Shown here one piece after another: positions 36,635 to 38,780 of a DNA stretch of 64,000 bases. This DNA comes from Octopus vulgaris (Eukaryota). The notes beneath the pieces are model-generated. The model worked only from the letters and a program-made list of their open reading frames with translations. It did not search any database and was not told the DNA's origin. Position numbers and translations under genes: made by a program. Positions within the stretch are counted from its first letter, which is position 1, and each line of letters begins with the position of its first letter. The stretch spans positions 148,986,001 to 149,050,000 of the forward strand of contig OX597815.1 in NCBI GenBank assembly GCA_951406725.2. The letters are read 5' to 3'.

Positions 36635-36637
<3 letters not shown>

Positions 36638-37019
36638 TATTATAAAAGGCAGATGTTATCTGCCTCCCTTTGGGAGTTATACAAATCTACAATATAGGAT
36701 TTCTTCAATTACAATTTACCTTGCATTTTTAAGAGTACAATGCATCGCGTCATGCCAGATCCAGTTTTTAAAATTTAAACTCCAGTTAAGCAAAATTTAC
36801 AGAAAACTCACATTCTGGTGTGTGTGTCAAATGCTTTTCTTAGTCTGGTTTACAGCACACGCAAACGCACACACACAGTGGGCAACGAATAAAATGAAAG
36901 TAATTGACTTACTGTAGTGAGTGATTCTTTCACTCTGCCTCCCACTTCCTCTTTCCACACAGACACGCAAATATATAAATAAAATTGTAAGCTAACGTGC
37001 GTGTGTGTGAGTGTGTGTG

Positions 37020-37068
<49 letters not shown>

Positions 37069-37110
37069 GCGTGAGTGTGTGACAGGAAAGTTATTTTACG
37101 ACGAATATAA
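36635..37110 (+). mobile_element. Possible Helitron 5' portion
   Basis: A|TCttattataaaa start resembles the 5' end at 38386; no 3' hairpin-CTAG found. Confidence 0.4.
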
Positions 37111-37119
37111 CACCTATAT

Positions 37120-37612
37120 CCAAGTAGCAGAAAGATAAGACAGTAAGGTGTGATTTGAGGGAGATTTGGCTGCTATTTCTACCATGTCTAGCTGCCATGT
37201 AGGGGTCTCCCTCATAGGCTCATACATACATATATACATAGATAAGACAGTAAGGTGTGATTTGGGGGAAATTTGGCTGCTATTTCTACCAGGTCTAGCT
37301 GCCATGTAGGGGTCTCCCTCATAGGCTCATACATACATATATACATAGATGAGACAGTAAGGTGTGATTTGGGGGAAATTTGGCTGCTATTTCTACCAGG
37401 TCTAGCTGCCATGTAGGGGTCTCCCTCATAGGCTCATACATACATATATACATAGATAAGACAGTAAGGTGTGATTTGGGGAAAATTTGGCTGCTATTTC
37501 TACCAGGTCTAGCTACCATGTAGAGGTCCTCCTCATTGGCTCATATATATATACATACATAAGACAGTAAGGTGTGATTTGAGGGAGATTTGGCTGCTGT
37601 TTCTACCAGGTC
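37120..37612. repeat. 107-bp minisatellite, about 4.6 copies
   Basis: gataagacagtaaggtgtgatttg.ggga.atttggctgctatttctacca.gtctagctgccatgtaggggtctccctcataggctc at 107-bp spacing. Confidence 0.95.
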
Positions 37613-37659
37613 TGTTAGGCCTTCTCATGCCTTGAACATAAGACCAAAGCAGAGAAAGT

Positions 37660-37875
37660 ATTCTTTTATTCTTCTGCTTTTTCCAGCCATTGGTCTGTGG
37701 CCATGCTGGGGCAATGCCTTGAAGAATTGTAGTTTAATGAATCAACTCGTTTTATTTTTGTAAGCATTGTACTTATTCTATCTGTTTCTTTTGTCAAACC
37801 ACTAGGTGACAGGGATGTAAACAAACCAACATTCGTTGTCAAGCAGTGGTGGAGGACAATCACAAGCACAGACAC
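37660..37875 (-). mobile_element. SINE 3' half
   Basis: tgtggccatgctggggca...tacttattcta...gatgtaaacaaacca. Confidence 0.7.
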
Positions 37876-37960
37876 GCACACACACACACATACATGCATA
37901 CACATATACACACATACATACATACATACATATATATATATATATGTGTGTATATATATA

Positions 37961-38219
37961 TTGCAGCGTGGAAGGTGTTTGTAAGCCATTTAAGAAACAC
38001 ACAAAAACCGTTACATTCACTTCAACATTTAAATTTAATTTGCCAAAATATTTTCGTCGCTTTGAGACCGCGACCTGTTCACTGACAAAAATATCGTGCT
38101 AACAGGTCGCGGTCTCAAAGCGATGAAAATATTTTGACAAATTAAATTTAAATGTTGAAGTGAATCTAACGGTTTTTGTGTGTTTCTTAAATGGCTTATA
38201 AACACCTTCAACGCTGCAA
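37961..38219. repeat. Inverted repeat, about 118-bp arms with about 22-bp spacer; PLE-type fold-back
   Basis: ttgcagcgtggaaggtgttt...gaccgcgacctgtt / aacaggtcgcggtc...aaacaccttcaacgctgcaa. Confidence 0.92.
38039..38089 (-). ncRNA. Hammerhead ribozyme candidate with G3:C8 variant core
   Basis: TTTGTCA-GTGAACA-G GTCGC GGTCTCAAA GCGAC-GAA-AATATT-T-TGGCAAA. Confidence 0.65.
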
Positions 38220-38385
38220 CTGTTTTCGTTCCAGCACACGATCTCAGATCAAGTCACTTGCTATGCAAGTACATCTCTGTAACTATATATATATATATTT
38301 ATATATATATATATATGTATATTGGTAAAAACAGTAAGATAACAAAAGAAAGAAAGAGACCTCAATATTATGTAAATAGAGGAAA

Positions 38386-38779
38386 TCTTTATATATAAAA
38401 GTGAGGTTGTGTGTCTGTCTCCTACAATTTAGATTCCTAACTACTCCCACATTTTGCGGTGCAGTTTAACCAAAACCGGGTATCTTATAGTCGTGATTCA
38501 TATCGAGACCGTCTGGGTATTAGCGCGCGTCTACGATGAGTCTACGATTTTAAAAAAAAATTACCATCAATTTTTCCCATTTTTAATCCATTTTTGACAT
38601 ATATAAGGGAAGTAACTCTCTAAAATTTATTATTAAATCTCAGAACGTAAAAAGCTACAGTAACACCCCTCCCCCTTTGTGGTTAGCCATATTGTGATGG
38701 CTATTATACTTTACATCTCTAAAAATGCTTATATAATTATTTCCCTTACAAACCCGAGCAACGCTGGGCGATACTGCTA

Positions 38780-38780
<1 letters not shown>
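38386..38780 (+). mobile_element. Non-autonomous Helitron
   Basis: A|TC start, subterminal hairpin cccgagcaacgctggg (38753-38768), CTAG|T end, no TSD. Internal sequence is shared with about 10595-10660. Confidence 0.85.

Follow-up and report, generated by a model that had tools for sequence, protein, structure and literature searches.

A pseudo-LTR hammerhead motif with a G3:C8 core as the family state of a Penelope-like retroelement in Octopus vulgaris

In the available text of Cervera and de la Pena (2014; PMC4209133), the minimal hammerheads of metazoan Penelope-like retroelements are type I motifs in pseudo-LTRs (pLTRs), with an extra nucleotide 9/10.1, a G10.1-C11.1 pair and a palindromic helix III. 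They occur as many solo copies and opposite-strand pairs, have low activity and follow the consensus CUGANGAH, the sole 3-8 variant in that text being U3-A8 in Schistosoma (about 1,300 hits). Natural U3:A8 cores also appear in Perreault et al., 2011 (PMC3088659). In the hammerhead of the Anolis Poseidon element PAc, which is protein-assisted, single changes at these positions abolish cleavage and the engineered double change C3G/G8C partly restores it (Frangieh et al., 2024; PMC11167929), a partial rescue that is found in PMC8495972 as well; catalytic mutants in that work leave insertion in vitro unaffected. A G3-C8 mutant is reported as less active with C17 than with G17 (PMC3884650; data not shown there). 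The hallmarks of Penelope-like insertions are partial tandems of the pLTR, an inverted 5'-truncated copy, a one-sided tail and microsatellite targets (PMC8557442), and the non-LTR retrozyme is built of short head-to-tail tandem units with a hammerhead in each (bioRxiv 2026.07.22.740005).

The stretch of DNA analysed here, 64 kb long (the window), carries a motif of this architecture on its minus strand (Table 1). The initial annotation had placed stem I, stem II, GAA and the palindrome AATATT around a GTGAACA core, with TGACAAA in the right arm of the locus. Each of these parts was borne out, reading on the minus strand from 38089 to 38039, and the motif is real, although that description had omitted the strand, the extra G between A9 and G10.1, the UUU triplet and the 119-bp inverted repeat around the motif. 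The literal core CUGANGA is absent, with GUGAACA in its place, while U4, G5, A6 and A9, G12, A13 and A14, and the A15.1-U16.1 pair are all present around stems I and II. The motif also shares the extra nucleotide 9/10.1 and G10.1-C11.1 with Penelope minimal hammerheads. UUU is known as a weak cleavage triplet.

Table 1. Features of the hammerhead locus and of the element that carries it
Feature	Position	Strand	Remarks
Type I minimal hammerhead motif	38039..38089	-	stem I, core, extra G, stem II, GAA, helix III palindrome, U17
Stem I, 7 bp	38089-38083 (5' strand) / 38045-38039 (3' strand)	-	one U.G wobble; 3' strand UGGCAAA
Core GUGAACA	38076..38082	-	G3 = 38082, C8 = 38077
Extra G	38075	-	between A9 and G10.1
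Stem II GUCGC/GCGAC, 5 bp	38074-38070 / 38060-38056	-	
GAA	38055-38053	-	
Palindrome AAUAUU	38052-38047	-	helix III
U17	38046	-	
Predicted cleavage after U17	38045..38046	-	triplet UUU; by hammerhead numbering
Left arm, pLTR fragment of the Penelope-like family	37962..38099	-	whole hammerhead and ORF start (ATG at 37989); tail-less
Right arm, pLTR fragment	38101..38283	+	5'-truncated within the core (positions 3-5 missing, C8 kept)
First 31 codons of the retroelement ORF (MAYKHLQRCNCF...)	38191..38283	+	match to the N-terminus of near-full-length copy L239
Helitron-like non-autonomous carrier	36635..38780	+	2.1 kb; holds the inverted pLTR pair
Shorter Helitron-like unit	38386..38780	+	3' end of the carrier; stands alone elsewhere (L066, L083)
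107-bp tandem repeat, 4.5 copies	37133..37613	.	carrier cargo

A relaxed descriptor matched this motif alone on both strands of the 64 kb. In 60 Markov resamples, the same descriptor gave 0.017 matches per 64 kb with any 3-8 pair and none with G3C8. Across the genome, the pattern TGTCA-G-TGAN-C-AGGTC had 8,481 matches, compared with two for the reversed control. The computed fold of the motif had z = -2.14, with 7 of 200 shuffles equally stable, and Rfam at the gathering score gave no match anywhere in the window. A metagenome scan returned two matches in bacterial-looking frames, which lacked the stems and were taken as chance.

Copies that extended upstream (577 matches) led to a frame with RT plus GIY-YIG. 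At all seven young loci fetched (L237-L243), a perfect GTGAACA motif was located about 1.0 kb 3' of this frame, which is longest in L237, where 1025 aa hold RT and then a C-terminal GIY-YIG. The GIY-YIG part matched Pfam with E 1.5e-5. Pfam gave no RT match on a 376-aa piece; RT was assigned from GGAIG and YVDD motifs visible in the sequence itself and from relatives that carry the name RT-domain protein, the best named one being annotated as an Octopus vulgaris RT-domain protein (54% identical). In L239, the motif lies 92 nt 5' of the ORF ATG, and the arms in the window carry the first codons of that ORF. Family copies show pLTR partial tandems, inverted 5'-truncated copies, one-sided tails and microsatellite targets such as (TA)n, and thus match the available account of the insertion hallmarks of Penelope-like elements (PMC8557442), here of the C-terminal endonuclease type. 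The motif is a minimal hammerhead in the pLTR of a Penelope-like retroelement.

Another GIY-YIG frame, beside L096, was considered as the parent and rejected: it belongs to another family, and the full pLTR of the family studied here was near only 1 of 20 loci, the query locus itself. The genome also holds a third abundant GIY-YIG Penelope-like family (L148-L167; 6,507 candidates), with CTGATGATG 3' of its frame, and a further family of minimal hammerheads with the canonical core CTGACGA (L241:6773 and L250:3958, both on the minus strand).

The motif sits in the left arm of an inverted repeat of 119 bp and 96% identity, whose right arm has about 64 nt of extra 3' tail and ends at (TA)n. Helitrons have a 5' TC, a 3' hairpin plus CTRR and a target between A and T, and they form tandem copies. 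By these end rules, we take 36635-38780 to be Helitron-like, as it opens with TC, closes with a hairpin at 38753-38768 followed by CTAG, has its target inside (TA)n and also occurs in tandem copies. When the left arm was used as the query, 874 candidates came back, and the 40 that were scored were all identical over 141 bp; all 30 fetched matches had the same junction and about 2.1 kb of flank in common. The exact arm junction occurs in 607 copies, which indicates that the window copy is one old insertion that was amplified as cargo. Transcribed from the minus strand, the two arms together have a computed fold of -192 kcal/mol, a hairpin that would bury the motif, and the copy in the window is probably inert, a passenger rather than a working ribozyme.

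Among other features of these loci, the copy number of the 107-bp tandem repeat differs between carrier copies, and the window has about 307 copies of (AAT)n at 57419-58338. In L391, L403 and L405, the two arms of one inverted pair belong to different subfamilies, which implies template jumping from one RNA to a second. The idea that the two arms have different cores (inverted G3C8, direct C3G8) came from L044 and was abandoned: L038 and L046 are junction artefacts, and C8 is present in both arms of the window.

We then counted positions 3 and 8 genome-wide in the family-specific context of the window's lineage (family A). There were 6,800 copies with G3C8, 228 with G3G8, 21 with C3C8 and none with C3G8; a looser search found decayed family A copies with C3G8 (L035, L039, L044). 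Of 30 fetched among the 8,481 pattern matches, two had the carrier junction and the others had different junctions. As a sampling that ignored the core, 79 arms were picked by a motif downstream of the hammerhead, from 70 of the first 100 listed places out of 10,544. Position 3 was included in 54 of the 79 arms, with G3C8 in 49 of these 54 and C3G8 in none. G3:C8 is the family state. The double change of the earlier reading therefore stands, as a joint state of the family, on 6,800 copies against 21 and 0, although the two positions are imperfectly locked, the 228 G3G8 copies being about 11 times the neutral rate. The companion claim, that searches based on CUGANGA miss the motif, was confirmed for nearly all of the family; such a search gave 17 matches, and of six that were inspected, three belonged to the family and had a genuine C3G8 core.

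G3G8 makes up 3.35% of family copies, as compared with 0.31% (33/10,544) when the identical change is counted at a control site, which rules out a generic ACA-to-AGA hot spot. The control site changed from C to A or T in 315 of 10,544 places, and G3 changed to C in 0.31% of the family. G3G8 was found across old and young subfamilies, including the RT-bearing locus L232, and its confinement to one sub-lineage or clade was rejected (p-AU 0.028). Cores with this mismatch therefore evidently spread by retrotransposition. Some G3G8 copies have a sub-lineage or a duplicated flank in common, and part of the count is local amplification. A cluster of G3G8 copies is located in the first 5 Mb of G000:C16 (L387-L394), several of them with the GGTCTGAAA loop in common. 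In four sequencing runs (organisms B-E), none of the variants listed fell at position 3 or 8 at a 5% share.

The genome-wide pattern with C3G8 gave 343 matches, most of them belonging to family B, a sister of A (29 of the 30 that were fetched), which reads TGTCA-CTGAAGA-GGTC. A second sister, family D, was found through RT similarity rather than through the core pattern and carries CTGATGC-G-GTCACA at the homologous place, again with C3:G8. Proteins of D and A are 55% identical, and D frames reach 1312 aa. The spacer between hammerhead and ATG is at chance (35% identity between D and A, 33% when shuffled), while the core geometry is kept. Family D is very young, with its hammerhead at L253:2129-2179 on the plus strand and an ORF at L253:2263-6198; its frames are intact and include a long insert rich in Asn. 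Position 9 of the D core is C instead of A, suggesting that the core has relaxed in this clade. With C3:G8 at the corresponding position in both B and D, the swap represents a genuine covariation between lineages.

An older radiation, E, also has G3:C8. The pattern used to collect E left positions 3 and 8, the 3' strand of stem I and helix III free and fixed stem II and the other core positions, so the latter are no evidence. With 3 and 8 free, 37 matches had, by hand tally, GC in 19, CG in 7, AC in 4, GT in 3, GA in 2, CC in 1, TA in 1 and GG in 0; a script run on 30 fetched copies gave GC in 16 and CG in 5, and these five CG copies were B-type. A tree of 153 rows, from which 29 carrier duplicates, 18 unassigned rows and the stem I and core columns had been removed and which had few columns, separated 121 A and E rows from 32 B and D rows (100/99). 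In 26 hand-picked rows, the 3-8 pair was GC in 12, CG in 7, wobble in 3 and unpaired in 4. These rows showed nine double-sided changes at 3-8, a number that counts sequences, the 3-8 swap itself being a single event, and one swapped stem II pair (GC/AU).

By column majorities, E (21 copies) has GTGTCA/TGACAC with AATT, and A has TTGTCA/TGACAA with AATATT. One stem I pair is thus G-C in E and T-A in A, loop II differs, and N7 is A in family A and C or T in E, while the 3-8 pair and the fold persist. These changes between E and A, which followed the swap, are stronger evidence than the 26-row count. Positions 3 and 8 are Watson-Crick complementary and covary across lineages, with the G3G8 excess as a partial exception. 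Another repeat (L248:8564-9148, L255:8845) has a hammerhead-like U3:A8 core (TTGAAAA or TTGATAA) with a 4-bp stem II.

N17 is U in 92 of 102 copies of family A, 10 of 19 of E (8 unparsed in each) and 3 of 3 of D, and it is C in 26 of 29 rows of family B. The U17 of the G3 lineages fits the report, in the part available, that C17 hampers a G3-C8 mutant (PMC3884650). In the minimum-energy fold, G3 pairs with U17 and extends stem I. The helix III duplex has a computed energy of -0.2 kcal/mol for AAUAUU (A) and +2.2 kcal/mol for AATT (E), and co-folding yields strand-swapped stems in which the helix III dimer is not chosen.

The ends of the 79 arms also bear on cleavage. None of them had a 5' end exactly at the predicted cut, and 33 began 20-27 nt upstream of G3, which indicates that uncut RNA is the usual template. 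Eight arms began 5-9 nt past the predicted cut (Poisson p about 2e-4 before correction for the choice of window); this stretch is AT-rich, and microhomology could explain the cluster. The G3G8 excess and the uncut motif in most insertions speak against a strict need for the 3-8 pair. Family A has a sharp 5' boundary between AG and ATGCAGC, 20-27 nt upstream of G3 (e.g. L179, L291, L302), just after a branch-point/acceptor-like CTAAC...TTTCTCAG; the boundary is seen in family E too and may be a transcription start or a splice site.

The identity of the element, the fixation of the swap in A and E, the C3:G8 state of B and D and the carriage of the window copy, as part of an inverted pair, in a Helitron-like element are directly established. 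We lean, with modest confidence, to a pLTR hammerhead with G3:C8 that self-cleaves in the parent element, likely slowly and with the help of a dimer or a protein, the window copy being probably inert. Two motifs in a tandem transcript would pair through the palindrome to form helix III, G3 would pair with C8 and so place the 2'-OH of nucleotide 8, and U17 instead of C17 would avoid a Watson-Crick G3-C17 trap. Cleavage would trim the tandem precursor RNA of the parent element, short single-pLTR RNAs would stay uncut and be copied whole into thousands of solo and inverted insertions, and selection would be so weak that copies with a mismatch could spread for some time. The stronger proposal, that this is the first natural lineage-wide G3:C8 hammerhead, active, reached by two transversions through a tolerated G3.G8, kept safe by U17 and borne by a recently active element, has in our judgement slightly less than an even chance. 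The initial reading of a compensated variant thus gains from the joint G3/C8 state and from C3:G8 in the sisters, and loses from the 228 G3G8 copies and from a window copy that is probably no ribozyme.

Other explanations differ in how they fare against these data. The 119-bp inverted repeat and the silence of Rfam on the motif would suit a foldback DNA element (MITE) whose terminal inverted repeats look like a hammerhead by chance. The arm junctions are variable, however, the 3' tails are unequal and single arms occur; the sequence forms the 3' end of an element with RT/GIY-YIG and includes the start of its ORF, and sisters have canonical cores at the same place. The link of the motif to the RT/GIY-YIG frame refutes the look-alike, to which we give almost no credence. 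That the motif acts as a ribozyme at the window locus itself, in a host or Helitron transcript, is very improbable: the left-arm motif is intact save for one wobble and all 40 copies that were scored agree fully over 141 bp, but this identity reflects recent copying as cargo, the window has no partner motif on the same strand, and a minus-strand transcript reaches the complementary arm first and would close the -192 kcal/mol hairpin.

A more serious competitor, which we still consider unlikely, accepts the swap as real and holds that the ribozyme is dead or nearly so, G3 and C8 having been fixed by two-step drift and the fold maintained for a different function, be it the binding of protein, a promoter or splice-site context or an RT stop. 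The G3G8 excess in several subfamilies, the uncut motif in most insertions, the lengthening of stem I by G3.U17 in the fold and the C9 of family D all point this way, as do the zero RNA-seq reads ending at the cut site and the normally inserting mutants in the available text of PMC11167929. Under drift alone, however, there would be no reason to expect the two fixed changes to restore the one tertiary pair, G3:C8 to survive in both A and E while N7, loop II and the spacer changed, or the G3 lineages to avoid C17.

Should the G3:C8 hammerhead prove active, the rescue mutant that is standard in the laboratory would have a natural counterpart, one that became fixed in a lineage numbering thousands of copies. 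Descriptors built on CUGANGA and UUGANAA can miss about 8,500 motifs in this one genome. The families also form a ready natural allelic series (G3:C8, G3.G8, C3:G8 with C17 and C3:G8 with C9), which bears on the need for Penelope hammerheads in transposition and on the route by which an RNA catalyst gets across a mismatch valley.

Small dimeric Penelope-associated hammerhead variants with a reduced stem III and dimer cleavage were reportedly described, to judge by the title, by Lunse, Weinberg and Breaker in 2017, and their set may include G3:C8. In the literature covered on hammerhead 3-8 variants, to which Lunse 2017, Przybilski and Hammann 2007 and figures do not belong, a natural G3:C8 was not found, and it is absent from the available text of PMC10085705, PMC2837043, PMC6765202 and bioRxiv 2026.07.22.740005. 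Unlike the tandem units that the latter describes for the non-LTR retrozyme, the copies studied here are solo or inverted pairs, with no tandem array at the window locus. In comparison with the metazoan Penelope minimal hammerheads in the text of PMC4209133, the architecture and the pLTR location are the same, whereas G3-C8 in about 8,500 copies and a 7-bp stem I are particular to the present elements. The natural U3:A8 cores (PMC3088659, in the part available) likewise represent covariation at 3-8, but would need two transitions via a U.G wobble, whereas G3:C8 needs two transversions via a G.G or C.C mismatch. C3G/G8C of PAc, as far as the available text of PMC11167929 goes, is a laboratory mutant; here, a lineage that was active recently has the identical double change as its wild type.
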